The notes below the pieces were generated by a model, which searched no databases, had not been told where the DNA came from, and worked only from the letters and a program-made list of their open reading frames with translations. Positions 1,533 through 18,364 of a DNA stretch of 20,000 nucleotides are shown in pieces. This DNA is from Moniliella sp. 'wahieum'. Lineage: Eukaryota. The DNA lies in the NCBI GenBank assembly GCA_003971905.1, contig RSEE01000162.1, positions 57,666 to 77,665 of the forward strand, written 5' to 3'. A program made the translations under genes and the position numbers. How positions within the stretch are numbered: the stretch's first letter is position 1; the number at the start of each line of letters is the position of its first letter.

Positions 1533-2760
1533 TTTATCCGGAGAGCAAGTGGAGGATCCGTGATGGTGGTGACAAGCGTGCGACCAGGAGCGGGGTCGCA
1601 GGAACAGACGAGGGGGACGAGTGCAGACCGAGGGGAAGAAGAGCGAGGGGACAGCCAACAAGCGAGCGCCAGCGTGCGTTTTTCTTCCGTCGTCGCTGGG
1701 TCGCGGGGGCAGGGTGGTGGTGGTGGCGGTGGTGGGGGCGGCCGGAGTGGGGAGGGGCGGTGGGGGACACAGCAGCGTCCAGCGCCCAGCGGCTGCGTGG
1801 ACGTGCTGTGGGGCGCAGCAACGTGCCAGCGACCCAGAAGACCGGTAAGACCGTCGTGGCCACTGGCGGGTGCAGCTCCGTCGCATAAAAACTTCTCTGC
1901 CCGCGCCGGCGATTAGAGGAGCGCGTCGGCGGCGGCGTGGGCTCCCAGCAGCTGGTGCGCATCCCTCGCGCGCCAATGGGATGGATCGAGCGCGCGTCGG
2001 GGGGCTGCCCGGTGCCTCTGGCGGTGATGGCGACGGTCGCTGGGTGCGAGCCGGTGTGGCTGGCTTTCTTGACAGCAGGCCCATAGTGCGCGGGGCAGGA
2101 GAGCGCACAGGAGGCTGTCTATGGCCGATTCATGTGACCCGAGTCGAATTGGCAACTGATTTTCAATTTGGGGTGCCGGTTCCTAAGCGGCTGAAGCTCT
2201 GGAGCTTCAAGTGAAGCTTCTCCTATGCCGCCTCCTGCCTCCTCCTGCCTTGCCTGGCGTGTTGCCCAGCTGGAAGCAGCCGCGCGCAGGTCACCAGGTC
2301 ACGGGGGGCGTCGCTCGTACCGACGACTGGCCAGTGGCCTTCTTGCGTTGGACATTCGTTTGAATTTTGCCGGCACCGATCCGAAATCGACGCCATGGCA
2401 TAGAGCGCCACAGCCAAAGCCGATGATCGATGAAGCTCGCCCCCACCCCCAACCGACACATGCAACGGTAAGTAGCAGACAAGCCAGTACGGCAAGGTAA
2501 CCATAGTAGCCAAGCCAAACCGCCGTCTGGCGCCGTCGCATTCCGACCCGCTCGCATGGGTCTCTGGCCTCGTGCCCGACCTACTCAGTACTCAGGGCCC
2601 ACCTGCACCGCTCCCCCGGTCCCTCCCCGAGCACTCTCGGCAAATGCACCACCGCACACGCCCAGGGCCAAGCCTGTGCCACATGCCCGTGCGTATTTGG
2701 CTGTGGCCATGCTGTTGCGCGTTGCGCACGCCTTACGTATCGCCCATGCTTGCCTGGGGT

Positions 2761-2918
2761 TGACGTTGACGCGTTGACGTTGAAAGAGACAGCCTATGTA
2801 GATCAGGCTTCAAGCTTCAAGCTTCAGCTTCAGCGCCTCTTCAGCGCCTCAGGCTGAGCGCTGAGGCTTAGCGCTAAGGCTTAGCCCTGAGGTTCTCAGA
2901 CTGAGATCTCAGATCTCA
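2761..2918. repeat. TNA/short-palindrome array, left cluster
   Basis: TCA GGCT TCA AGCT TCA AGCT TCA GCT TCA ... TGA GCGC TGA GGC TTA GCGC TAA GGC TTA GCCC TGA ... TGA GATC TCA GATC TCA. Confidence 0.85.
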
Positions 2919-3420
2919 CCGGCACCCCACGCCACTGCGTCACCGGCCACCTGCTCCCCGTTCCCCCAACAGTCTTATATATAGGCCTTACCTGCTTTTT
3001 GGCTCTCGTTACACGTTACTAGTTACTAGTACTCACCCTCTTATTCTCGCCAGCGCCATGCCCACGCATGGCCAAGCATGACGCCGTCTGTGGCCTGGCA
3101 CCTAATCCCCTACAGTGACCCATAGTGACCCGCCAGTGACCCTACGACAGGAGGATCGATGAACGTGATAAACGCGCAGGCGCTCAGAGGCTCAGATGAA
3201 CGATGAAGCTCATCGATTTAACCTACCGTATAATATTCAACGAATTCTTTATTCCTCTTCGGTTCCTCGCTCTTTCCGACGTCGCTCCTCTCCTCTTCTC
3301 TTCTCTCCCCTCCTCTCCCTCCAAGCTCCACCCCGCGCCGCTCAGGAACAATGAAGAAGTAAAACACCGTTGTCGGCTATATACCAGGTATACTATAGTA
3401 GCTACGACAGCTTCTAACTC

Positions 3421-3675
3421 CTGAGACCCTAAGGCCTAAGGCTTAGGGCCTGAGCCCTGAGCGCCTGAGCAGCCCCCAGGCTGAGCGGCCTGGGAGAGCG
3501 CTTCAAGAACACAGCGGAAATGCTCCAACAATTTGAAGCATGAAGCTTGAAGCTTGAAGGTCAGCGCTCGCGAGCGCTGAACGTGCTGAACGTTGAACGT
3601 ACGCTGAACGTACGCTGAAAACGTACCCTGATGCCTGAACGTACACTGATTCAACGTTGAATGTTACGTTGAACG
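3421..3675. repeat. TNA/short-palindrome array, right cluster, roughly inverted relative to 2761-2918
   Basis: TAA GGCC TAA GGC TTA ... TGA AGCT TGA AGCT TGA ... TGA ACGT TGA. Bases 3541-3559 are the exact reverse complement of 2808-2826, and 3561-3580 is a perfect 20-bp palindrome. Confidence 0.85.
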
Positions 3676-3744
3676 AACCGCACCAATTCACACGCACTAC
3701 ACGCCCGAGATGTCTGTGCTGTGGCCTTCTGCATACCTGCCCCC

Positions 3745-3826
3745 CTCTCCTCGATCTCTCTGCTCTCTCTGCCTCTCTCTGTCTCTCCTGCAGCTCTCTG
3801 CCTCTCTCTGCCTCTCTATGCCTCTG
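3745..3826 (+). repeat. CT-rich low-complexity microsatellite
   Basis: Repeated CTCTCTCTG / CCTCTCTCTG units. Confidence 0.8.
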
Positions 3827-5049
3827 TCGATGTGCTTTGCACCAGTGTTGCACCCCCCCTTAGGCCTTAGTGGCCTTAGTACCTTTCACTTAAAGTCTAT
3901 TAACGCGTAACGTCTATGGAATATCGCGACCCACACACCGCTGTGTATCTCCTCTGGCAGCACCCTGGCTCAATTGATTTCCCGGCAGAGGGGTGCAACA
4001 GCTCAGCTATCAGGCTCAGACGTGTGTGGGAAGTCACGTTATTTGTAGCTAATAGCTAGAAGTATAGTAGCAGACCAAAGTGCAGCGGTACTACAAAGTA
4101 AGACCATAGGTAGACTACGTTGTAACGCTTAACGCGCAACGTACAACGGAACGGAGGCGGGTAAAAGTATGAAAAGTAAGTACAAAGTAGTGAAACGGCA
4201 TTTTCTCAGACAGTATCCTCATCGGCCTCATCGGTCACTCGGTACAGTACTCACACTCGTACTCAGCAACTCAGTACTCGTATTCATACTCAGTCCTCAG
4301 TACCTCAGTACGCTCAGCCGGAGGACTCAGACTGATATTCATCGTGTACGAAGAGTTGCACCTCCACAACTGTTACCCTTGGTGGCCACCAGCAACCAAC
4401 GTGATAATCTCCACCCCCTTTCTCTACCATTCACCATCTACTTCGCCTCATCGCAGTGTCACCAGCTACGCGTATGACTCGTTGTTGGCAACTGACCCAA
4501 GAGCGTCGAAAGATGCGTTGTGCATCTGAGCATCGGTGTCGCTGAGGCTTAGTGAAAGGTGAGAAAATTGAACTCAAAAGGCTGAGGCTGTGACATGCGA
4601 ACGTTGAACCAAGGAGCAGACGGGGTGTGCGCTGCTGAAATGGACTGTCAAGTACGGTGAGAGGATGGAGATCATGAGATCTAAGAGGCCGTGACACAAC
4701 CTATGCTGCGGGACACCAGCTCCCGTAGCACCCTCAGTACGTTTCCGGACACCGTGCTCGGTACGAGCCCAATGGAGGAAAAAATACCCTAGAGAAAGAC
4801 CCACACCGATGGGTCTCTACCTAGAGAAAAAGAATCAACACTGACGGTCCCCCACTCCGTACCCTGTGCCGTTCCTCACGCAGCAACAGAGGACCAAGTA
4901 GGGGTTTGATGTTCTCGCTTGAGCATATTTGGGCTTGCACCAGTCCAAGTTTGGCGCATTGCATTGCCTGAGGCTGTGCGGGTTCCGATGCTCAAGTTTG
5001 TGCGCTCCATCCCGGACTCCCACATCCACAACGAGCTGACAGGGGAGGA

Positions 5050-5105
5050 GAGAAGGAGAAGGAGAAGGAGAAGGAGAAGGAGAAGAGAAGGAGAAGGAGA
5101 AGGAG
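5050..5105 (+). repeat. (GAGAAG)n hexanucleotide microsatellite
   Basis: About 9 near-perfect GAGAAG units. Confidence 0.9.
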
Positions 5106-6963
5106 CGTGGGCGGAAGGCGAGGTGCAGACCACCAAATGAAAGTGATGAGATCTGAGAGCATTCGGATGATCTGGAATGAGGTGGACCATACTTTGCGGG
5201 GTCCAAGTCCAAAGCAAGCGATGGATTGAACGTGGAAGGTGTTGTACACGATGGAGCCACAACTCGTTTGGAACGCCACGGGAGAAGACTGTTTCCTATA
5301 ACAACGAATGCGACAAAAATACCAAGTACTAGGGGGCGCACTCAAGAACTTTTCTTTTCCCTCTTTTGTCTTGATATGACGACGCGAGAGGATACGGGCA
5401 CCAAGACGGCGAGCAAGATGTTTTAGACACTGGAAAGAATTGGCTGATGTGTCTCCTTGGAGATGGTTCGCCGCTCACATGCCTACTATCCACGCGTGCT
5501 ATCCATTCATTTTGGAAGCGAATGGTGGGCGCCAAAGGTCCTGACCTGCTGGCGACTCGCCTTGTTTTCTAATTGATTTAGCACGAATACGCCATGATAC
5601 ACCGGATGAGCGAGCGGGATAGGCTCACCAGCCTTTCTTTGTCCCTGCCTACGCTCCATTTCCCAAGCAAACGTATGTACGCACAAGGATACGAAATGGG
5701 AAACGCTCCCCCCCAAGCCCGCCCATGCAGCGTGTGCTGTCATCTCGTGCCAAAACCCATTCGTGGATCCACAACCGACACGGCGTTGCCTACAGCAGGT
5801 CAACACCCCTCTGTGATCAGTTTTCTTCATTCCGATCCAAACATCGAATGTGGCGCGAGTCGGGTGTGTGGATACGAAGAACGGGGCGGAGAAGGGTGCG
5901 CAGAACGTAACCGTAAACGTTAAAAACCCTTCTCCGACTCCTCGGCAAGTTTCTTCTTCCAGTGCCCAACATCTTTTTGGCACTCTCGGCACCGTGGTAT
6001 CTGCGTGTCGTGGTGGCCAGAAGGAACAATGAGTGTTGCGTGGGCCCCCGCTACGGGAACGTGGCATACGGGGCTCCCCGTTTGCCTACTGGAGGCGTTC
6101 AAATGCATCAGCTCCTGATTCGCCCGCATCTCACATGCGTAATAGGGGAGGTATTCTGTGTGCCACCTTCGAAAGCAACTTTGGCCTCTTCCCTGGTCCC
6201 TAAGTCCCAAGGTGTAGTCTACCCCCAGTACCCTGATCCATGCAATAACTCTATCCTTTGCAAGCCCCATCCGCGGGCGTAGTGCGTGTGCCTGGTCTTC
6301 CTCCACCGCCGCGTGCAACTACTGTGTTCGTACCTATGGCATATGGAAAAGAGAGGAGAGCAGCCTCCGGCGTGCACAGCGCGTAGTCCTTGTCTCTCTT
6401 CCCTGGCGCCTTTCCTCTGTTACTCTAACATCGTACTTGGAATCGGGCCATTCCGGGCCACCCCGCCGACCATGCGCTTCTCCCGGCCAAAGTACCTTCT
6501 TGATACGCGTTCTCCCTACTTCCCAATCTAATACCTACCTTCTCTTCCAGGCTGTCTCCGACCTCATCATCATCTGTTTGCCCCCGTCCTCTCCCTTGTC
6601 ATACATGGTATCTTTTTCTTTCGTATGCCTCTCCTCTTGGTACGCCTTTCACTGAGCGTGCTCGGGTCGGGTCATCTTCATCCTCCCAGCATCGTCCCCC
6701 GTATCAAGACTCTCCTCTCCATTTTGGACTTCATCTATACCGTGGCCTTCTTTTGAAGAAGTGCATTGCATCAGCATTGGCCTTTGTTGCCGGCGCTTAT
6801 TCTCGCCCGATCCGTTCAGACCTCTAGGTACCTGGCCGGCTATGCTTCTCGGCCAGAAGCGGCTCTACATGGAACGGGGGACTGTGATCGAAAGGTGGAC
6901 CAAGGAGCAACCGATATTGATTATCGATTATCTCTCTCGACGCGGTTCAATAAATGCAAACAG

Positions 6964-7026
6964 CTTGATGGGCAAAGTAAAACACTTGATGGGCAAGATA
7001 AAACGCTTGATGAGTAAAGTAAACCC
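6964..7026 (+). repeat. 21-bp tandem repeat, 3 copies
   Basis: CTTGATGGGCAAAGTAAAACA / CTTGATGGGCAAGATAAAACG / CTTGATGAGTAAAGTAAACCC starting at 6964, 6985 and 7006. Confidence 0.85.
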
Positions 7027-8443
7027 CCGGTGTGCTCTAAATCCTATCATGAATCACTATGTAAACCCAGTATACAGCGAGGAGGATCCGATCGCACTTG
7101 CCATATCCCACGTCCAAAAATGCACCCCTCTCCGTTCCTCTGTATTATGCACGTGCCACATACCCATTTGGGAACCGAGCGTGGCGGGAGGGCCGCGGTT
7201 CAGCGGCTCAGCGCGCTCAGCCGCGGCGCTCAGCGCTGAACAAGGCGACCTGGAAGCGAACGTCTCATTGAGAGTATCGGATCGGAAGAGGGAGCCGCGA
7301 ACCAAGCATCCGCTGTTGGGAGTGTGCGCTATGCGATCCCCATCCCCCGCATACGTATGGGCTAAAAGACATGCTATACCAAACGTATCCTCGGTGCCGG
7401 TGAGCGGTGACTAGGACTATACACCCTATTGTCCCTTGTTTGGCTTATGTGCTTAGCGCTTAGCGCTTATCCCTGTTTTGACATGATTTGACACCTCCGA
7501 AGCCTTAATAGGATACGTGGGTTGGTGTATACACCCGTGGCTTGTTCGAACCCCTGTCTCTACGACCGGTAGGACCTGACGGGCCTGAGGCCAGAGGGCT
7601 TGTGTCATGTGTTGGAATAAGCGTGGGCCTATAAATATTCAATGCCCTAAAAACGTTCTAAAATTCACCCCCCCCCAGCCACATCCCCGCGACCTGGTAT
7701 CGCTTTCTTTCGTACTTTTTACTAGGCTCCTCTCCACAATCATTAATCAACGTGCCTTGGGGGGTGCTTCCGCTCTTCTCGATTATCGAAGTTACTGCTC
7801 GTAGTAGCGGCGGTGAAGCTTCAAGTTATTCAAGCTTCAAGCCTCAAGCCTCAATGTCCAATGTCAAGGGTGCGAGAGTTGTTGGTGAGGGCGAGCCAGT
7901 GGTGAGCCGATGAATGAAGAGCGAAGAGTGTCTTGTCTAGTGAAGCTCATCTCGAAGGCGTGTTGGAACTGCTAGTACGACTGATGCATTCACAGGATTT
8001 ACTCGAATTGTGAAGATGCAGAGTGAAAGGAATCCAATTGCTGCCAGTGCGTGTATCTCCTGCATGTGCATGAGCGCTGAGCGGCTCAGCTCTTACAGTT
8101 GCTCCACCCCCTCTCCAACCTGCTCTTTACTCCTACCTTGGATACATATCCTACCTGCCAACAGTCTACACCCGCACAACGAGCAAGCATTTAAAAGAAA
8201 GAAACCATGGATCCATAGAAAAGGCAGGACGAGAGGCAGACGCGCTCATCATGCCAAAGAGGATCATGAAAGACAAGTTCACATCAAAAGACGGGGGCAC
8301 AGAAAAGGTGCCTTTCCCTAGGGATCATCGATCAACTTGATCCAACGAAGAAAGTAACAGACAGAGAAATCGAGGAAGCCGCCAGACAGCTGGGGGGGCT
8401 TGTGGCTAGCTTCACGTTGGGGTAAGCACCACAACAAGGGCGC

Positions 8444-10094
8444 TTACCAAGTACGCGTCTCAAGCAGCAAGTCGCTCTCGGGTGCGAGGCCAATGCAAGC
8501 GCGGAGGAAGTTGGTCACGGCAGCACGCTGGCGTGCGAGGGAGTTGACCACGTCCGTGCCGGGCTTGACCAGCGGGGCTTTGAGCGAGTACGACAAGAGC
8601 GAGAGCACCGAGTACAAGTCTTGGAATTGGGCGGTATCGTCTGTGCCTTCGGCATAGGTGATGCGCGTGCTGAGTTCAGCCAAGATGGCAAGATCAATCA
8701 GCAGAGGCGAGGCCAGCAACGAGTCTTCGCAAATGTTGGTGATGTACAAATGGTTCCGTCCGCCCAACATCAACTCGGAAGTGTAGTCGTCCATGGCGAC
8801 CTTGTCATCGCCAACGGCAGGAATGTACTTGATGACGATCGAGTGGTCTGGCGACTCGCCCTTGACACCCGCCTTGCCCGATGGCTTGTACAGCAAATGG
8901 TTCGCCGCCGTACAGTCGTCCACAACGGACGACTTGCTGATTTCCTTGGACCGGAACTGCCGAGCGGAGGAAAGGTTGTAGCCATCGTTGTTGCCCAAGT
9001 GGTGTAGGAGACAACGGCACGCGGCTTGATGCCAGCGTTGGTGAGGTAGTCAAACAGGACACTCTTCACCTTGGTCTGGCCAGTCTTGAGGTCGTCACCG
9101 GCAATAAATGCGCGGTGGCGCTCGGCCACTGGATCGCACCGGGCACAAAGGTGTTTTGCGAGCGCCATTGATGACGGTACGCCTTCCAAGATCGAGGCCA
9201 CAGCAAAGATGGTCGACGGCGACACTTCGCTGTGCGACGTTTCAATCGAATGCAGTAGCGCATCGGCCGTGTCGTTAACACCAATAATGTCCGAGTAACG
9301 TTCGGTGTTGGCGGTCCAAACAACAATCACTTGGTCCAAGCCATTGTCCGCCTTGAACTTACGAATGTCGTTACGCACATGCTCGACGTGCGCCTTCTTG
9401 TCCGTGCCGGGGATCACATTGTCGCGCGCGCCTCCTGTTGGCAGCGATAAAGTCGGGGTAGTACACCGACGGCAACGGCTTCTGCCCCGCCATGTAGGGC
9501 GCAACTTGACGCTGCAAGTCCCACTCGAGCACCTTGGCACGGTGCATCGAGTCAGCCAGGTTGAGCGACGAGATGTCCCATCCGCCCACAACAAAGTCGT
9601 TGGGGTGCACCATGGGCAGCATGGAGGCAAACGGGACATTGACATCTTTGCCATTCTCGTCCGTGCCCAAACGGATGGTAGAGGCACGAACGAGGGAGCC
9701 GTAGTAGTTGGGGTGCTGCAGACCTTCCTTGGTGTGGAAGGAAATGTTGTGCTTGTTGGCCAAGATGGCGGCCGTGATCGTGGTGCCGTTGTTGCCTCCC
9801 CATCCGATGAGCATGAGACCCGTCTTGGGCACCTTGCGTTCGGTGCGGAACTGGTAGCTAGCCTTAGCAGGCGTGGCCTTGAGTGTGGTCTTGCCATCAG
9901 GGGCGACGGTCTTGGTGACATGGGTGGTGAGGTAGTCGTACTTGGACGTGATGTGCGCGTCGGGTGTACTTGACATTGGGCGAGTCGACCTCGATCGACT
10001 CGACCTCCTCGTGACGCACGGCGGTGGGGTCGATAACCGCCGGCTCGGCAGCCGACGGAACAACAGAGCAGGCAGTGGTAGCAATGGGGGCCAT
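8444..10094 (-). CDS. INO1: myo-inositol-1-phosphate synthase (apparent frameshifts, likely sequencing errors)
   Basis: Hallmark motifs across successive frames: [72 protein letters not shown] at 10094, TAA at 8444-8446. No coding intron needed. Confidence 0.97.
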
Positions 10095-10202
10095 GGTGCT
10101 ACGGTGAAAAAGGAAAAATCAAAAAGGGTAGGTGAGGGGGAGGGGCGACTTAATGTGATAAAGGGGAAGGGCAGGTGTGCTTGCTGCCCCGGTGGGAGTT
10201 AT

Positions 10203-10280
10203 CTGTGGCAGATGAGGCGAGAAGGATGGTGAGCCATGGAACAGACAGAAACACGAGAAGGAACGAGGAAGAAAACGTAC
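10203..10280 (-). other. Probable 5'UTR intron of INO1
   Basis: GTACGT donor at 10280, pyrimidine-rich body, GCTCAC branch-like site, CAG acceptor ending at 10203. An alternative or second acceptor TAG ends at 10099, just before CACCATG. Confidence 0.6.
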
Positions 10281-10492
10281 GGCAACTGCACAGTTGGTTG
10301 GAGAAAATGGTGGGCGACGACCAGAAGGGAGGGGAGCCACTTGGTAGCCAGTGGATCCGATCCAGAAATCGGCAGGGGTTGGGGGTTGGAGAAGGAGAAG
10401 AGGATGAAGAAGGCGTCGACGAGCGGGTGGGGCTTGACGAAGCGGAGGCGGTGGGGGTGGGGAGGCGGGAGGGCGCGGAGGTTGGGGGCTGC

Positions 10493-10499
10493 TTTTATA
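10493..10499 (-). promoter_or_regulatory. TATA box of INO1
   Basis: TATAAAA on the minus strand within very GC-rich sequence, followed by a pyrimidine-rich putative 5'UTR. Confidence 0.55.
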
Positions 10500-10794
10500 G
10501 GAATCAGCAGCTGCCTCCGAGGGCAACTGGGGTGGCTTTGGCCTTGGCTTTGGCGTGCGCGTGCCGCCGGCTTGCCAAGGAAAGAAGATGGATACGAATA
10601 CCACTCGGGCTGGGCACGAGCAGCACCACCAGCAGCAGCTGCCGTGCTGCGATCGGCGCTGCACACGGCGAGTGTGGGCGACGCGCGCGCGGGGACTGGC
10701 GCTGTGCCTGGTGCGCATTCCGCGGGGCACGCGCAGGCACGCGCGGGGTGGCGCGTGGTGGTGTGTGATCCCGACGGGTGAGCAGGCCGATTGA

Positions 10795-10804
10795 CATGTG
10801 AAAT
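10795..10804 (+). promoter_or_regulatory. UAS-INO/ICRE-like bHLH site CATGTGAAAT
   Basis: Exact 10/10 match to the S. cerevisiae Ino2/Ino4 consensus, ~300 bp upstream of the INO1 TATA box. Confidence 0.5.
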
Positions 10805-11499
10805 CGGGCGGCGGGGCGGGCGGCGGCGCTGTTGGGGCAGGGGGCACGGCAGCGCAGGTGCGCGCACGCGGCCGCCCGGAAGCGTTCGTGCCGGCTGGCC
10901 CGTCCGCAGCCCAGGCACAGGGGCGCTGTGGGGAGGCGTCGGCCGGGCGGACGGCGACGGAGATAGCGGGGTGGTGCACCACTAACACTTGCAATCCAAT
11001 TAGTCCCCCCATCGCGCCCCCAACCCAACCTCCACCAGCGCACCAGCGCCCACCAGCCCACACCTCCCCCTGTCCGCCTGGGCGTGGGCAGCAGGCACTC
11101 GGCCAGTCCCTCGGCCCTCCCCACCGGCGGGGCTGGCTTGGGGCGGGTGGTCTGGCCCAGCCGCTGCCTGCGATCGCACCTCCCTCGCCCTTCCGTGGGC
11201 AAGACACCAGCCAAGGCAGCGCCCGCCGCAGCCCAGCCCATGCGTGTTGAAAGCCACGTCGCCAAACTGCGCTCCAGCACGCCGTCACATTCACAGCCCA
11301 TGGAATGCAGCCCAACAGCAATAGCCAACCTGCCCCCCAGCACGCCATCTCTCCTCCCCGCCCACTTTCAGATCTCAGATCTAATCCATCTAACGGAGTA
11401 CACTCATCGTACTCAATGTACTGACCCAACCAGCCAACAACCACGCGGTTCGTCACGTTCAGCTGCGGCGTTCTCCCAACCAGTCCCCGCTTCAACTTT

Positions 11500-12828
11500 C
11501 CCGCTTTGAGGTTTGTCCCATTGATATCTGTCTGCCGCGCCCATTGGCGCTCATCGACATCCACAGTAGTCGTAATGTGAACAGAATCTGTGGTATAAAT
11601 ATGGTGCGGCACTGCCAACACATATCCGGCCTCCCATCTCAACGACAGCCGCCAAAAGGTCCCGGTCAACGTTCAACGTTCAACGTGATCGTTCAAGCAA
11701 CCAAACGCCACCGTTTCGACCCAACCAGAAGGAGCCTAGCGGGGCAGCTCCTAATAGAGCCATTGGTGTCATAATTAATGCTCAAGCGTACCCACGTGCC
11801 CTTCTGCAGAGAAGCCCTTGGGGCTGGCGAGTGGGAATGATACTGCGGAATGTGAAATTTATCAACGATGCTCAGTCCCACAGAATCGCAAAAACAACAA
11901 AACGAGAGACTGGCAGAGATGCCGTCAGTACTCAGTTCCATTGACCCAACAGCAACCGCTTGATCAGCTTGATCTCCATAAACATGTCGGGCATGTTGCT
12001 ATCTTTTTGGATACCGTTCGACCCCAGTTGGACATTCCGATATGTCATTACCTTACCAACAAAACAAGAGGGGGGGAAAGAGGCAAAGGGGAAGGAACGT
12101 ACCTCGGCCGGCTTCTCCGCTCAGCTGAGCGCTGAGCTCAGCGCTCAGTAAGCTCGGTCAATGTCCCGCTTCCTGTGCGTCACCTGACGTTTCTTGTGTT
12201 TGGTCTTGAGCGGCCCGAAGACAAAATAGCGGCACACGCAGGAAAGTCAGTCATGTTCGATGTTCGCACCGAGGAAAGGAGAGGCGCTAGCATCGAGTAC
12301 TTCATCGCCATCCGACCAGGTCGCATGCTACTCTCATCCCCCTCGAAGCCAGCGAAGGCAGCTCGAGCGGCCGCTGCTGCCCCCCGTACCGACTGTGGTC
12401 GTATCGAGAAACACATCAACGTTGAATCCCGATGGACACTTGATCGAGTGCGCCAAAGTCGGACCAATCTACGCTACCTATGCTACCGGAAAGACCACCC
12501 AGCCCACTACGGGTTCTGACGGAGCTTTGACGTTCAAGTACAGATCGTTGGATTTGGTCAAAAGAGGGAGCGGGGAACGAGTTCAAGTCAGCAGATTGGC
12601 CTTCGCCCGTGTGCCTACAGGGACCATGGAAATCATCAGAGGGTGGGAAGGGTAGGAGAGGGACGATGACTAGCGACTGGGCTTGCGCCAGAGCGGTAGG
12701 GAGAGTTCTGACGGTCTGCGGTAGCCTGAGCGGATGGCGCGCTTCTCTTCCGCGCGTGGTTCGGACCGGAGGTGAATGAGGGCACGTGCCGATACCTGGG
12801 AAGGGACTGCCCGCGTACGCACATCCAT
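11500..12828 (-). pseudogene. NSE4: Decayed NSE4-like (SMC5/6 kleisin subunit) gene
   Basis: Collinear motifs resembling fungal Nse4: EEKRAIRSGYRR; LLTKSNDLYLNVKAPSE; IGPTLAHSIK..GFNVDVFL; GRMAMKYS; FGPLKTKHKKRQVTHRKR; EKPAE followed by a GTACGT donor at 12102; IQKDSN..IKLIKRLL; DSVGLSIVDKFHI; VDVDERQW. In-frame stops: TGA 12583-12585, TAG 12478-12480, TAG 12469-12471. The 3' boundary is approximate. Confidence 0.7.
12125..12148. repeat. Perfect 24-bp palindrome CTGAGCGCTGAGCTCAGCGCTCAG
   Basis: Self-complementary, built from TNA-GCGC/GC units, and lying inside a former NSE4 exon. Confidence 0.95.
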
Positions 12829-12968
12829 GCTGGGTGTGGGACAGATGGGGGCGGCCGTGGTGGCGGAGCAGCAGACCAGCAGCAGACCCGACGCGGCGCG
12901 CCCACGACAAGCCAACAGACGAAACGCGCACCGCGTTGGGACTCAATGAAGCAATTAACACCTTGTTA

Positions 12969-15137
12969 ATGGCACACCAGGGCCTATGGAGCCGATTACC
13001 TAAGATGCGCCGCCCGTTCCCGGCGGCGTCGGCAACTGAATCGGAAGAGGCATTGTGCATTGGCATCCAATTCGTCCGCACTCGTCCCTCTGCCGGTCGG
13101 GGCTGCACGCAGCACCACCCCTTGGCGTTGGAATGCTGCGGTCGTCGCTGCTTGGGCGCGCACGCGCTGCTGCCCACCGCCCATGTCTACCGTCTTGCTC
13201 GTCTCTCCCGTGCTCGCCATCCGAGCCAACTCCTCCGCCGCGCACGACGATCGCCACCCCCCACGCGCCCACGCCGCCCACGCCGCCCGTCCCACCAGTG
13301 CGTGCGCAACCGGGGCAGGCGGCGCGCGACCTGGCCCCCACCTCGCTTGAACTGGAGATGCACGAACCAGGCAGGGGGGCGAACGTGGCGCAGCTCAAAG
13401 CATGGCAAGAACAGTACTTCCTCCCCAGTCGTCCTGGTCAACGCCCGGCCGCCTCGTCCGGCGGCTTCGGTTGGTACCTGCTGCGCTTGGTTGGCCGCGT
13501 CGTCCTGGTCGGGGTGGTGATTTGGACGGGAGACCAAGTGTACCGAGGTGGCTGGATAGCCTATTCTGAGTTGGTTGGCATTCCTCATCTGACTGCCGAA
13601 CCGCGTAGGCTGGTACGGCAGCACAACGACCCGTATGGATGGAACGAAGAGTATCTACTTGACCATGCGTTTGCCGCGCCTGGGTGAAGGGTACCCCATC
13701 TTCCTGGCCATGGTGGGCGCGACGTGACCTCGGCCACGCATGGTACAGTCTCGTACACGGTGGTACGGTCCCGAAGGACATCCTTGCTGCTGCGCCGCCG
13801 CCGCCCGACCCACCTTCGCCCGCTGCGATGCAACAGTACCGATCGGACAAGGAGCGGTACGCTGCCTACGTCACTACCTTGGCCCACGACCAGGGTATCC
13901 GCGATGCCGAGGAAACCATCAGTGCTACTCTAGCAGCGATGGATGCGTACCCTGGCTCGGTGTACCAGCTTCCCACCGCAGAAAGTTTGCAACACGCCTT
14001 CCCCGATGCACATGCCATGGCAGCAACAGTGGTGGATGCCAATGCGGTGGCGGTACGAACGCACGTGAGTTACCTCCGTACCCAACTGGCTACCCCGAGT
14101 GCGCTCAAGAGTATCGTCCAGGACGACAGCAAGTTGGTGGAGACGCTTGCGTTTGTCGGGCCCGAGGGACAGCGGCACTTGAAGCTGGCCCCACAACAAG
14201 TTGCTCTTCTTGCCAACCGCGTGGGGGCAGCTTATGTCGACTTGAGAAGGCCAGATGAATCGGTCGAGTGGTACTTGAAAGCGTTGGCTTCCCTGCCCTC
14301 GTCTTCGTCTTCCTCTTCCTCTTCCTCTTCCTCTTCGTCTTCGTCGGACCCCTCCCCGCTCCCACCTGCCCGCTGACACGGGCGATGATCACGTCTCTCC
14401 TGGGACTGGCCACGTCGTACGCCTCGCCGCCGAATCCGGATTCTAGCAGCGTTCCCCGCAAGGCAAGAGAACAGCAGCTGCAGCAGTCTCTTTGGTATCA
14501 GGGCCTGGCACTGCGCGTCATTCGTACCGAACTGGCCCGCTTGGCGAACCGAACCATCGAAGCCACTGGGACCGATGAGCATGTACGTCCTCAGCGCTGG
14601 AACATTCCTACCCCTTTCCCAGGTTGGGGGGAGATCAAGCACGCCTTACCTCCCACCCTGCTTTCCCGTCCTTTGCCTATGCATGATGACCCCCTCCCCC
14701 CCGCCTTGCCCCCGACGATGGACGAGGGGAAACAACTGTACGTTGCCTGGCTCCTAGCGCAAGACGCAAACAGCTACTATGCTCCTAGGCCAAACGACGT
14801 ATGCACTTACCAAAGTCCCTCGTCCGGGTTAGTAGGCTGGGCCTCGACGTGCTCGGGCTCGGCTCGTCGTCGTCTCGGACCGAGTCGGTCGCCTGGACAA
14901 AGCAAGCTGGCTTGGAGGCACGACGGGCCCTGGCGTTGCTTGGAGAAACTCGAGAAACACCTTCCGGGTCCGGGTCTGATCCGGATACCCTGCCGGTCGG
15001 AGCCGAGGGGACGTTGGCCGACCGGTGGGTGCGCAATCCCGTTTACAACCAGTGTTGCCAGGGAGTTGCTTGGTGTGGCGCAGACGCTGGAACAGAGTGC
15101 GCAGCGGTGGCTCACGTTCTTGCAGCCTTCCACGTGA
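12969..15137 (+). CDS. Hypothetical single-pass membrane protein with a helical/TPR-like C-terminal region (possibly mitochondrial, Mgr3-like)
   Basis: Consecutive overlapping ORFs chain by frameshifts: basic N-terminus MAHQGLWSRLPKMRRP, hydrophobic segment WYLLRLVGRVVLVGVVIW, then DPYGWNEE..KGTPSSWPWWARRDLGHAW, a TPR-like LANRVGAAYVDLRRPDESVEWYLKAL, polySer at 14301-14345, and TGA at 15135-15137. The start codon and function are inferred. Confidence 0.65.
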
Positions 15138-15691
15138 AACGTGAGAAGTGAGAATGGAGAGAGGAGACGCAGCAGCGCTCTCATCGCTTTCAGCACTAAG
15201 CTGCGTTGTCCCCATGCGATACCTGTACCCCTTGGGTGGGTTGCGTTCATCGATCATATACACAGAGCCGTACAAAGTACTATAACAGGTGGTGTGTGAC
15301 TTTGACCCTCCAGACCAAGAATCCGTATCATCCGGGGTATCCGATAGGCTTCTGGCCTGAGGCCTGAGGCGGGCTGAAGTCACTGTAGTAGTCAGGGTCA
15401 AGGGCCGGTCAAGGGCCACATCTCAGATCTCATATTTGTGGTTACCAACTGTGTTGAATATAAAACCCGGAAGCTATTTTGTGCTTTGGGCCGGGTGAGG
15501 CCGAAACCAAAGGCCTGGGATCTCCATTCCCAACTCAACTTGCGGTCTCCTCTCAGACGCTGCTATTATATGTCTCACTGCAGCACCCTCAGGTATCTCT
15601 AGCTCGCACGGCGGGTAGGTTCAATGGCTTTAGTTTGAATGTGGGTAGGCGGGGAGGGGGGGGGGGTTAATCCATGGGCCAATAGATGAAC

Positions 15692-17557
15692 CTAGAGCTT
15701 GGCAGTGACCACTGCCGAGCCCGGACCGCCAGGCACAGTAAACGTAGCAACGGGAGTGTCGTAAAACACCTCGTCGACATTGAGCTGTGGAGTGTCTGTG
15801 GATTCAGCGACAATGCACGCGAAGGGGGTGGCGACCTGGCCGCGCATCATAGGATGATGCCATACGCCCGGGGCGTACGTGATGGCCTGTGCGGGCGAAG
15901 CATGGAACGCAGCCAATGTGCTCAAGTCAGGTTTATCGTCTTCCCATTAAGTGCGACAATGACCAGGTAGCCTTCATGGCCCGCTTGTCCAGTGCTCATG
16001 GGGACAAACGTTTGGGCGGAAAGCGGTGGCGCTCCAGGACCTTGACGCCAAAGGGTAAAGCCAACGGGCACAGTTGTACGTGTGAATGTGGGTCTTGGAC
16101 TGAGCCGGGGAAGGGTAGAAGCCGTACACGGGGGATTGGTCCGGGTACTTTTCTGCTGTGCCTTGGTTGGCTGCGACCCATCCGCCGCCGTTACGGCCAG
16201 CGGGCGGGACGCCAACCACGTACCCGTACGGCTTGAACGCCTGTGCGGTCAAGTAGGGTGCTACACATGCCTGGACCTCGTCAGGGCTGGTGGGTAGCGG
16301 GACAGGTGGAACGTCCTGGACGCCTTGGATTGCATTGGCCCGTCGTCCGACCAAGCGCACGCGCTTCATTCCTCCATCGGGGTGCATGACCACTTTGACG
16401 TGCGTCACGGCGCCCGTCGTGGCCAGAGGCACAATGTGTCGTTTACCTGGTCCCATGGGCGTGCGCGCGGCCAACTGACGCCACACGATCCCCGCTTCTT
16501 CTCCCCCTTTTCCCCCGCGCCGGGCGCGACGGGCCAAGGTGTACCGGGAGGCAAGCTGGTCCCCAGCAACTCTACCGTCTGGGGAAAGTTACCAAGAAAG
16601 TGAAGTGTGTCAATTTCACTGTAGGACAGCACACCTGCTTCGCCCAGGGAAATGACAATAAAGTCCTTGTGACCGGGGGTGCGGGATCGCTTGGTCTCCC
16701 AACCGTCGCCCATATCTTTACCTCGACCCGGAAGAAGGACATTGGCACCCGCACCAAAGTGTTGGTCCGAAGTGTACACCACCCTACCTCCATTCAACAC
16801 GTGCGCCAAATCCAGCACGCCCAGCCGCGCATCCGAGCCAACTTGTTCCTCGTGCCCGAGCCCCGGCGCGCGGCGCAATCTGCCCATACACACGGAACCG
16901 CGCAATGCCACCGTCGGGAATCATGTCGAGACGGACGTGGGTGAAGGGGGTGGAGCTGGGCTGGGTGAGAACAAAGAGGTGCCGCTGCGAGGGTCCACAG
17001 GCTACCTTGGGCAAACCACTTGCCACTACATCCCCCCGATGCCAGCGCCGCCCAGCAGTCATCCAACAAGAGTTCGCATTCCGCATGGTTAGTTACCCAG
17101 GTCCAGACGGAGGGGGCGGGGGGGGAGGGGGAAGAGGCAAAAAACGAATGCACGTACCCGTGGATCATCTGCAGCAATCAGCTTGCCCGCCGCTTCCTCC
17201 TCAGCTGGCTGAGCTAGGGCAAACACCGCTGCGGCCGGCGCTTCGTTACCATTAAAGTTAGCCGTGTCAATGTCAAATCCGCTCAGGGTCGCGCCGGCCT
17301 GAGGGCCCAGCGTACAATGCCCAGTCTACCCGCGGTTGTGCCGGCGGGTCTCCCACCATCGAACAGGGCGCCCTTTGGTCCAAACTGGCCTTTGAGCGAC
17401 TGGGCAGGCCCAGGCTTGAGCAGATCGGACGCGGGCGCAAACCATTCGTCACTAGCGGCGAGGATGCGGCCACCGAGGGCGTTGGAAGAGACCTCGGTGG
17501 TAGTCTGGCCAAGTTCGGTGCTGAAGGCCGACTCGGGATGACACGGAAAGAGCTCAT
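15692..17557 (-). CDS. DAL2: Allantoicase fused to a C-terminal ureidoglycolate lyase domain (DAL2-DAL3 fusion)
   Basis: Two allantoicase repeats: GGRILAASDEWFAPA..DG(W)ETRRHN..GFDIDTANFNGNEAP..DGGIARFRVYG, and GGRVVYTSDQHFG..MGDGWETKRSR..EIDTLHFLGNFP..PDGGMKRVRLVG. Then AllA/Dal3 motifs LTAQAFKPYG, ANQGTA, LERH, QTFVP, ITYAPGVWHHPM. One intron at 17026-17157; TAG at 15692-15694. Confidence 0.92.
17026..17157 (-). other. Intron in the allantoicase gene
   Basis: GTACGT donor at 17157, ACTAAC branch at 17093-17088, first downstream AG (TAG) ending at 17026; joins DDPR|WQVV. Confidence 0.85.
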
Positions 17558-18364
17558 GGTGGTGGTGGGTGGTGGTGACGCGCCCGAGGGGAAACGAGAG
17601 GGGGGGGAAGGGAGCGGACGGGGTGGGAAGAAGCTGATACCAAGGCGCATGGGAAGACGCCTCATTTATCAGTGACTCGCAGCTGCAATTTCAACCGCGC
17701 CCGGCGCAGCCGGATGGCATTCCGGCCAGCGCAGCCGCTGCTCTGAAGCTGGCCCCGGTCAAATGGCCGATTGGGATGGGATTGGGATTCGTTGTGTTTC
17801 CTCCGTTCGCACGTCTGCCACCCACACAATCCTGGTGCTCGCAGCGCTGCCAGAGCCTGTGTGCGGCAGGGGTGGCATCATCGATACCCTGGCCCGCCCT
17901 CAGATCTCAGAGCGGAGTGGATAGATTCGTGCTTTGTGGAGCCTGCTGGCAATCAAACTTTCTAGCTTTATGGCCACCTTGCCTTTTGAGTGCCTGAGCC
18001 ACCATCAGCTTCTCCAGCTTCACCCGAGTCAACAGAGGCTTGCGGAGGAGAGGTATCTTCTTCTCTTCATCTTTCTCATCGTACCGTCCGTCCCCACAAG
18101 CTGGTACAACTAAGCACGCCTTTCCTTCCCATTATGGCCACGTCCTGCCACTTGCCGCTTGCCAGCATCCGACGTTGGGGCAGTATAGACTCTCCTATGT
18201 TCTCCGCTCCCGGCTCGCATCGGAGAAAAGAGGCCCGGCAGCAAACATTCTTCCGCTGAGAAGGAGCAACAAAGGGGGTATGATGATGGCATAGTGCAAG
18301 AGTAAAATACAGCATGTGGGGGCATGTGAGACGCGGCAGTAGTGACGCGGTGACGGCCGAGCGA

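Follow-up and report, generated by a model that had tools for sequence, protein, structure and literature searches.

A genome-wide TNA-palindrome signature in Moniliella sp. 'wahieum', probably left by excision of EnSpm-like transposons

A 20,000-nucleotide stretch of the Moniliella sp. 'wahieum' genome (the window; positions 57,666 to 77,665 of contig RSEE01000162.1, here C162, in assembly GCA_003971905.1) is scattered with short units in which a 4-bp palindrome stands between two copies of the triplet TNA. This arrangement is a real, genome-wide, rule-bound mutational signature. We consider it probable that cut-and-paste transposons of the EnSpm/Tnp2 (CMCT) type, with an unusual 7-bp xyTNAab target, left the units as scars at their donor sites through hairpin excision and end joining. 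The signature would then be of a known hairpin-excision kind with a plausible source family, elements whose ends read CTCACTG..CAGTGAG and which insert at TNA with duplication of all 7 bp. An earlier note, made from the letters of the window alone, had proposed serial transposon footprints formed via hairpins; an element with a 7-bp target-site duplication (TSD), +7 indels and scars that retain the whole TSD support that proposal, and the causal step from excision to scar is one that we infer.

Results

A palindromic signature confined to TNA

A strict unit was defined as T-N-A, a 4-bp palindrome and T-N-A, 10 bp in all. The window contains 42 of them, against means of 1.8-5.7 and a maximum of 12 when 100 Markov sequences were simulated at each order from 1 to 5, which bears out the enrichment over background implied by the earlier note. 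The recurrence of one grammar with different cores, on which that note rested, was recovered as a strict unit in 18 of the 19 listed places; the supposed TCA-GTAC array at 4245-4315 proved to be a degenerate patch that lacks a strict unit, although a related +8 scar lies within it at 4295. Palindromic spacers account for 42 of the 75 TNA-N4-TNA arrangements in the window, compared with 2/46 for the control triplet ANT, 6/116 for CNG and 6/148 for GNC; the effect is confined to TNA among the four self-complementary triplets tested. All 16 palindromes occur as cores in a 210-kb sample, and a three-unit GATC pattern has 338 matches genome-wide where its reversed control has none. The excess of roughly 330 units per 404 kb, in a sample partly picked around transposase or motif matches, extrapolates to tens of thousands of units genome-wide. 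Among 80 INO1 loci of other eukaryotes (648 kb), which come from distant organisms, partly as transcripts, and serve as a background control rather than a survey of relatives, 125 of 1,898 spacers were palindromic, the chance level. A literature search of titles and abstracts returned no description of the TNA-palindrome pattern or of a 7-bp EnSpm TSD.

The absence of arrays from intact coding sequences, judged by eye in the earlier note, is confirmed by counting: there are no strict units in 7,488 bp of five apparently intact window genes, whose spans were set by hand, and none in 3,418 bp conserved with homologues. Across 310 kb of the genome the density is 0.9 per 10 kb in long open reading frames (ORFs) and 13.9 per 10 kb elsewhere. 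Arrays were also correctly placed inside the NSE4-like pseudogene, where the span 11400-12800 holds six strict units; that at 12416 lies one substitution from the orthologue on contig C5 and is probably there by chance. Relative to the C5 orthologue, the GCGC array at 12121-12151 lengthens an NSE4 exon by about 24 bases and introduces an in-frame stop in the frame as read, so that the gene looks truly broken, unlike the INO1 gene of the window with its apparent read errors. An orthologue lies on C5; what seems to be lost in the window is one copy of a gene for an SMC5/6 subunit.

Single events between haplotypes

Two pairs of contigs, C17/C62 and C8/C23, are close haplotypes with ~4% substitutions. 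Their alignment (145 kb of columns, some pairs overlapping) gave 1,444 clean, non-redundant indels out of 2,212 gaps, whose direction was deduced from structure rather than from an outgroup. Indel lengths peak at 7 bp (22, 28, 44 and 10 indels of 5, 6, 7 and 8 bp, respectively). Thirteen of the 44 clean 7-bp indels consist of a 5-bp duplication plus two inverted bases and arose where there was no full pre-existing unit, in line with the +7 length polymorphism foreseen in the earlier note. Nine of these primary events lie at an exact TNA and four at a triplet one mismatch off, and the nine follow the scheme xyTNAab -> xyTNA-ab-b'a'-TNAab or its mirror. A 5-bp duplication with two random bases would satisfy the TNA rule 0.5% of the time, and among 86 indels of other lengths (5, 6 and 8-11 bp) the analogous duplication-plus-inversion rule accounts for 5. 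A stricter earlier pass over the indels had yielded 6 primary events among 32.

Full units were added in six of the 44 indels at a symmetric TNA site or one already arrayed, and in one at another site. The six cases favour slippage or template switching during replication, which on heptamers already palindromic would build arrays with no nuclease, and slippage probably does extend arrays. As their origin it is improbable: nine primary events hit TNA sites that were not palindromic and so contradict it, it leaves TNA, the sharp 7-bp limit and the match with the TSDs of the elements described below unexplained, and the eukaryotes of the INO1 control, other fungi included, are at chance level. 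Slippage also predicts that the period continues on both flanks. Among 152 isolated units, two-base continuation was seen on the left only in 50, on the right only in 43, on both sides in 18 and on neither in 41, so that 93 of the 111 flank-matching units continue on one side; the match falls to ~0.3 at the third base. Parity between left and right scars is uninformative, as the types swap under strand reversal, and was left out as evidence. An ordinary microsatellite was rejected too, since the two bases gained in a primary event have no source but the inverse of the flank, and slippage fits only the six full-unit cases.

Comparison of 111 units in one haplotype with the other found 39 identical, 51 overlapping a gap and 21 with a substitution; the latter two classes indicate fast turnover, some of the gaps being read errors. 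That just 39 units are identical between close haplotypes speaks against selected protein-binding or chromatin motifs, which could account for the concentration of arrays in intergenic DNA; with all 16 cores in use, and units present even in a pseudogene exon, we hold this explanation to be very improbable. The same 39 units were read in separately assembled contigs, which argues against a long-read sequencing or assembly artefact. Errors of 1-2 bp are indeed frequent in the assembly (805 of the 1,444 clean indels are 1 bp, and INO1 is spread over three frames), but the units avoid coding DNA and obey a flank-templated rule, and an artefact is hardly credible.

Sister scars and the length of the duplication

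In the 404-kb sample, whole NN-TNA-NN duplications lying 1 nt apart (+8) carry the inverted flank base between them in 30 of 34 cases, and those 2 nt apart (+9) have an inverted spacer in 34 of 45. Two-base spacers in the controls are inverted in 3/7 (ANT), 3/38 (CNG) and 5/35 (GNC) cases, and eight order-5 simulations produced 0-1 inverted-spacer cases. Duplications of 9 bp show no excess, with inverted spacers in 1/1 (1 nt) and 0/6 (2 nt). The duplicated unit is therefore 7 bp (NN-TNA-NN), in the elements as in the +8 and +9 scars. In the +7 and +9 scars the centre of symmetry is even and the terminal flank base is retained. That +7, +8 and +9 products exist, and how they are built, is seen directly, and the window holds three +8 and five +9 scars.

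This length speaks against the PIF/Harbinger elements with 3-bp TSDs to which the earlier note had pointed. Such elements would explain the TNA core, and Harbinger-type TSDs of 3 bp accept several middle bases (PMC4561436). The observed duplication is nonetheless 7 bp, PIF/Harbinger elements generally excise precisely (PMC4561436), and a search for DDE_Tnp_4 in this genome returned 0 candidates, an absence that is unproven as the control matched in 1/14 genomes; that they left the scars is very improbable. An 8-bp hAT-type TSD with Ac-like repair was likewise rejected, elements and scars both showing 7 bp.

A family of elements with a matching target

The TNA-targeting element supposed by the earlier note exists. 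A pattern search with extension led to an element on C11 ending in CTCACTG, and a genome-wide search with that end gave at least 19 matches. Its terminal inverted repeats (TIRs) are 78-83 bp long with ~90-94% identity. Two-ended copies lie on C11, C23, C29, C34 and C35 (4.9-5.0 kb, 96-98% identical), together with a 378-bp miniature on C20; a perfect 7-bp NN-TNA-NN TSD flanks five of these six, and six single ends adjoin TNA-NN. The pattern TNANNCACTG was too unspecific (6,126 matches versus 4,097 for its control), none of 30 TNANNCTCACTG loci clustered at the motif, and 11 of 12 extended candidates had no inverted partner.

The target of the family agrees with the scars at several positions. 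G or C stands at +-3 in 104/128 scar positions and 22/24 TSD positions, and at the centre in 106/128 and 12/12, respectively; the three commonest TSD arms predict the three commonest scar cores, TGCA, ACGT and TCGA.

Two insertion sites have further features. The C8 allele (L131:1490-1510), compared with C23 (L132), has two extra bases between target and element end, which equal the inverted last two target bases and also the first two bases of the element. At the C20 miniature, the allele and three paralogous repeats each hold one copy of the target, and ~11 bp are missing to one side of the inserted element.

The ORF remnant of the element, compared with 1.84 billion proteins, has one match, P0121 (E 3.5e-4). 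This protein aligns to a frame adjoining a PF02992 match on C34 (E 1e-16) and shows similarity to clusters of DUF4218, Transposase_21 and Plavaka proteins (score 0.93, 11-20% of members). An H-x3-H motif is visible in the remnant, although the full DDE triad is unseen, and through P0121 the remnant may be weakly tied to Tnp2/EnSpm-like proteins. Tnp2-like genes with no nearby inverted repeats also occur, at C17:555595-559041 (L044), on C62 (L051) and on C34 (L045). The C17/C62 gene has a ratio of nonsynonymous to synonymous change (pN/pS) of 0.8-1.7, compared with 0.04-0.26 for three neighbouring host ORFs, and hence is not under purifying selection; with neutral pN/pS and no TIRs within 10 kb, it was rejected as a domesticated writer of scars. 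Longer homologues of its 351-aa frame were sought and none was found.

Discussion

A hairpin-excision scheme and its difficulties

In the scheme that we favour, excision would seal each flank as a hairpin that includes the last duplication base, as RAG does, and it is this inclusion that would give the palindrome its even centre. A host nuclease would open the hairpins ~2 nt beyond the tip, so that one side would end in the 4-nt 3' overhang ab+b'a' and the other in y'x'+xy. End joining with the two overhangs fully overlapped would yield TNA-palindrome-TNA, a gain of 7 bp whose core is copied from one flank only, and a lesser overlap would keep both 7-bp copies with one or two inverted bases (+8 or +9). 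Because each scar would contain a perfectly symmetric TNA heptamer, a further hit with re-insertion, or slippage, would add perfect units and so form arrays, while selection would purge frameshifting scars from working genes. Several of these steps are described in other systems: flank hairpins for hAT, Transib, RAG and Mutator-like elements (MULE; PMC5499845), the opening of hairpins by Artemis at 1-4 nt on the 3' side of the tip (PMC2175297), and P insertions of short length left by Ds in a fungus (PMC5873905). A miniature inverted-repeat transposable element has been repeatedly gained and lost at a single site (PMC1925063).

A number of observations weigh against this reading. Twenty-four of the 44 seven-base indels match no rule, 41 of the 152 isolated units match neither flank, and the direction of the indels is inferred. 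The target of the CTCACTG family is narrower than that of the scars, with A or T at +-2 in 22/24 TSD arm positions and 58/128 scar positions; the cores GCGC, GATC and GGCC, which make up 19 of the 42 in the window, are hardly predicted by the sampled TSDs and call for other families or a broader target in the past. No intact transposase of the family was found, and nine ORF pieces of the element had no match in a Pfam search. Three tries for an allele pair with element and scar gave none (the C20 allele is empty, C23 rearranged, and the C66 flank a repeat), no element end was found in 40 kb of C162, and a 912-kb scan for a second family with TNA TSDs found the same family only, a 527-kb scan returning no TNA-TSD element. 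The full-length copy at C11:228241-233089 (L120, L128) has unequal flanks, each with TNA in register, which may reflect one-ended or alternative transposition, or misassembly. Scars, finally, outnumber known copies about a thousandfold or more (tens of thousands against at least 19 end matches), an excess that a low-copy, often-moving element could possibly yield over a long time. Some of the scars probably stem from other families, or from earlier forms whose target was broader.

Direct cutting with no insertion might also account for the excess. A transposase-like nuclease, free or domesticated, might cut xyTNAab with a 7-nt stagger, and fill-in and hairpin repair would write the scar with no element passing. 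In addition to the number of scars, the 51 of 111 units that overlap a gap between haplotypes just ~4% diverged and the presence of two TIR-less Tnp2-like genes fit this proposal; it is nevertheless unlikely, as the C17/C62 gene is not under purifying selection and real elements with a matching 7-bp TSD exist. More tentatively than the scheme we favour, an undescribed EnSpm-like lineage, its ends in CT and its 7-bp target of the form NN-TNA-NN, could be imagined as a genome-wide mutator responsible for tens of thousands of self-seeding palindromic scars; its transposase might insert and excise at a very high rate, or might cut targets and leave no element behind. Were this so, each scar would improve the target, tandem repeats could arise by a route in which slippage is not the first step, and the genome would hold a natural record of CACTA-type enzymes cutting like RAG.

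Comparison with known systems

The CMCT clade, comprising EnSpm/CACTA, Plavaka, ESTA and Transib, is described with TSDs of 2-5 bp and mostly 5'-CA..TG-3' termini (PMC12730594), and CNIRT6 and CNEST of Cryptococcus neoformans are elements of this clade (PMC12810828). The CTCACTG family resembles it: it has TIRs, its ends read CACTG from the third base as do those of CNIRT6, and the H-x3-H ORF remnant may be weakly linked via P0121 to a PF02992-positive protein. It differs in its 7-bp TSD and in ends that start with CT rather than CA, both relative to the clade as described in PMC12730594, as well as in its fixed TNA target centre, and no complete transposase was seen. As it departs from both the CA..TG ends and the 2-5 bp TSD, we do not file it as a member of the clade. 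Subterminal repeat arrays are a trait of CACTA elements, and the family shares them.

The scar process may, by analogy, work like RAG/Transib-type hairpin excision. P nucleotides at RAG joints and the flank hairpins of Transib, hAT and MULE likewise leave 1-2 nt of inverted flank at the joint (PMC5499845; PMC2175297); unlike RAG coding joints, the scars are inherited, dominated by the +7 product and stacked in genome-wide arrays. Ac/Ds footprints in Candida albicans, yeast and plants are also short palindromic insertions from hairpin repair (PMC5873905), although Ac palindromes centre on the complement of the element-adjacent base, whereas the scars of this genome retain the last TSD base and have an even centre. 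The fungal hAT7 and Kyakuja elements have a 7-bp TSD as the sole trait shared with the CTCACTG family (PMC12730594) and could have written some scars. For hAT7, a search for the hAT dimerisation domain gave no match here, the control likewise matching nowhere; Kyakuja elements have CA..TG ends without TIRs, in contrast to the ~80-bp TIRs and CT ends found here. In Ustilago maydis, of a related fungal group, scattered '10-bp repeats' have been suggested to be transposon footprints (as cited in PMC4081816); the units described here, likewise 10 bp long, may correspond to them.

The assignment would link a repeat grammar present across the genome with one particular class of mobile element and, for a clade with reported TSDs of 2-5 bp, would widen the range to 7 bp. 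The scars would constitute in vivo evidence on how an EnSpm-like transposase cuts, with a flank hairpin and the last base kept. To our knowledge, such flank-hairpin cutting has not been demonstrated biochemically for CACTA enzymes. Numbering in the thousands, the scars would in addition serve as data on how fungi open hairpins and join ends, show a way in which short tandem repeats are born and mark unconstrained DNA such as the NSE4 pseudogene.

Scars and other features of the window

Table 1. Positions in the window of TNA scars and of the NSE4-like pseudogene that acquired some of them.
Position	Strand	Feature	Remark
2585..2594		single +7 scar	period continued by left flank only
2765..2918		densest patch: +8 scar at 2765, then AGCT, GCGC and GATC +7 arrays	
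3016..3025		+7 unit, core CTAG	
3430..3470		GGCC +7 unit and +8 scar (3456)	
3541..3660		AGCT array, +9 scar (3576), ACGT units	
3860..3910		GGCC unit, +9 scar (3865), CGCG unit	
4217..4315		+9 scar (4217), degenerate GTAC patch, +8 scar (4295)	
4675..4684		single GATC +7 scar	right flank alone continues
5147..5156		GATC unit within decayed non-LTR retroelement	too loosely aligned to young copy to call insertion
6921..6930		TCGA unit	
7206..7239		+9 scar (7206) and GCGC unit	
7453..7469		GCGC array	
7814..7853		AGCT array	
8071..8080		single GCGC scar	
8325..8334		single TCGA scar	
11368..11384		GATC array	
11400..12800 (approximate)	-	NSE4-like pseudogene with acquired scars	C5 orthologue matches Nse4_C PF08743, E 4e-7
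11666..11688		ACGT array	3' end of NSE4-like pseudogene
11925..11974		GTAC unit and +9 scar (11959)	exon of NSE4-like pseudogene
12121..12151		GCGC array in NSE4 exon	compared with C5 orthologue
15247..15256		TCGA unit	
15358..15432		GGCC unit and GATC unit	
17900..17909		single GATC scar	

Duplications of 11 bp around TNA occur at 2828-2850, 15396-15417 and 3590-3619; the hairpin rule fits them in part only, and they are possibly stacked scars. The segment 4846-5476 is the decayed 3' part, ~70% identical to young copies, of a high-copy element that we take to be a non-long terminal repeat (non-LTR) retroelement. The young copies have reverse-transcriptase-like motifs and, by eye, an apparent restriction-like endonuclease region. 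This element was tried as a writer of scars and rejected, as 14 inspected copy ends had no shared TNA target.

The source assembly comprises 69.5 Mb in 223 contigs, with the window at the end of C162. It appears to contain two close haplotypes and a distant third gene set (allantoicase is on C162, C8 and C23), which seems to indicate a hybrid, a polyploid or a mixed sample; homologues of window genes stand at greater distance than the haplotype pairs, with identities of 85% for INO1 and 74% for allantoicase. The best named relatives of the window INO1 are from smut-related fungi (Tilletiaria 74%, Ceraceosorus 72%). This gene (8444-10096, minus strand), 85% identical to the C5 copy, is broken into at least three frames by 1-bp indels that are probably long-read errors. 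An inversion of ~21-25 kb separates the haplotypes at about 601-623 kb of C17 relative to C62. At the start of the window, on the minus strand, coding tandem repeats of 15/30 bp and 6 bp (126-376 and 394-532) lie in a Gln/Pro-rich ORF.

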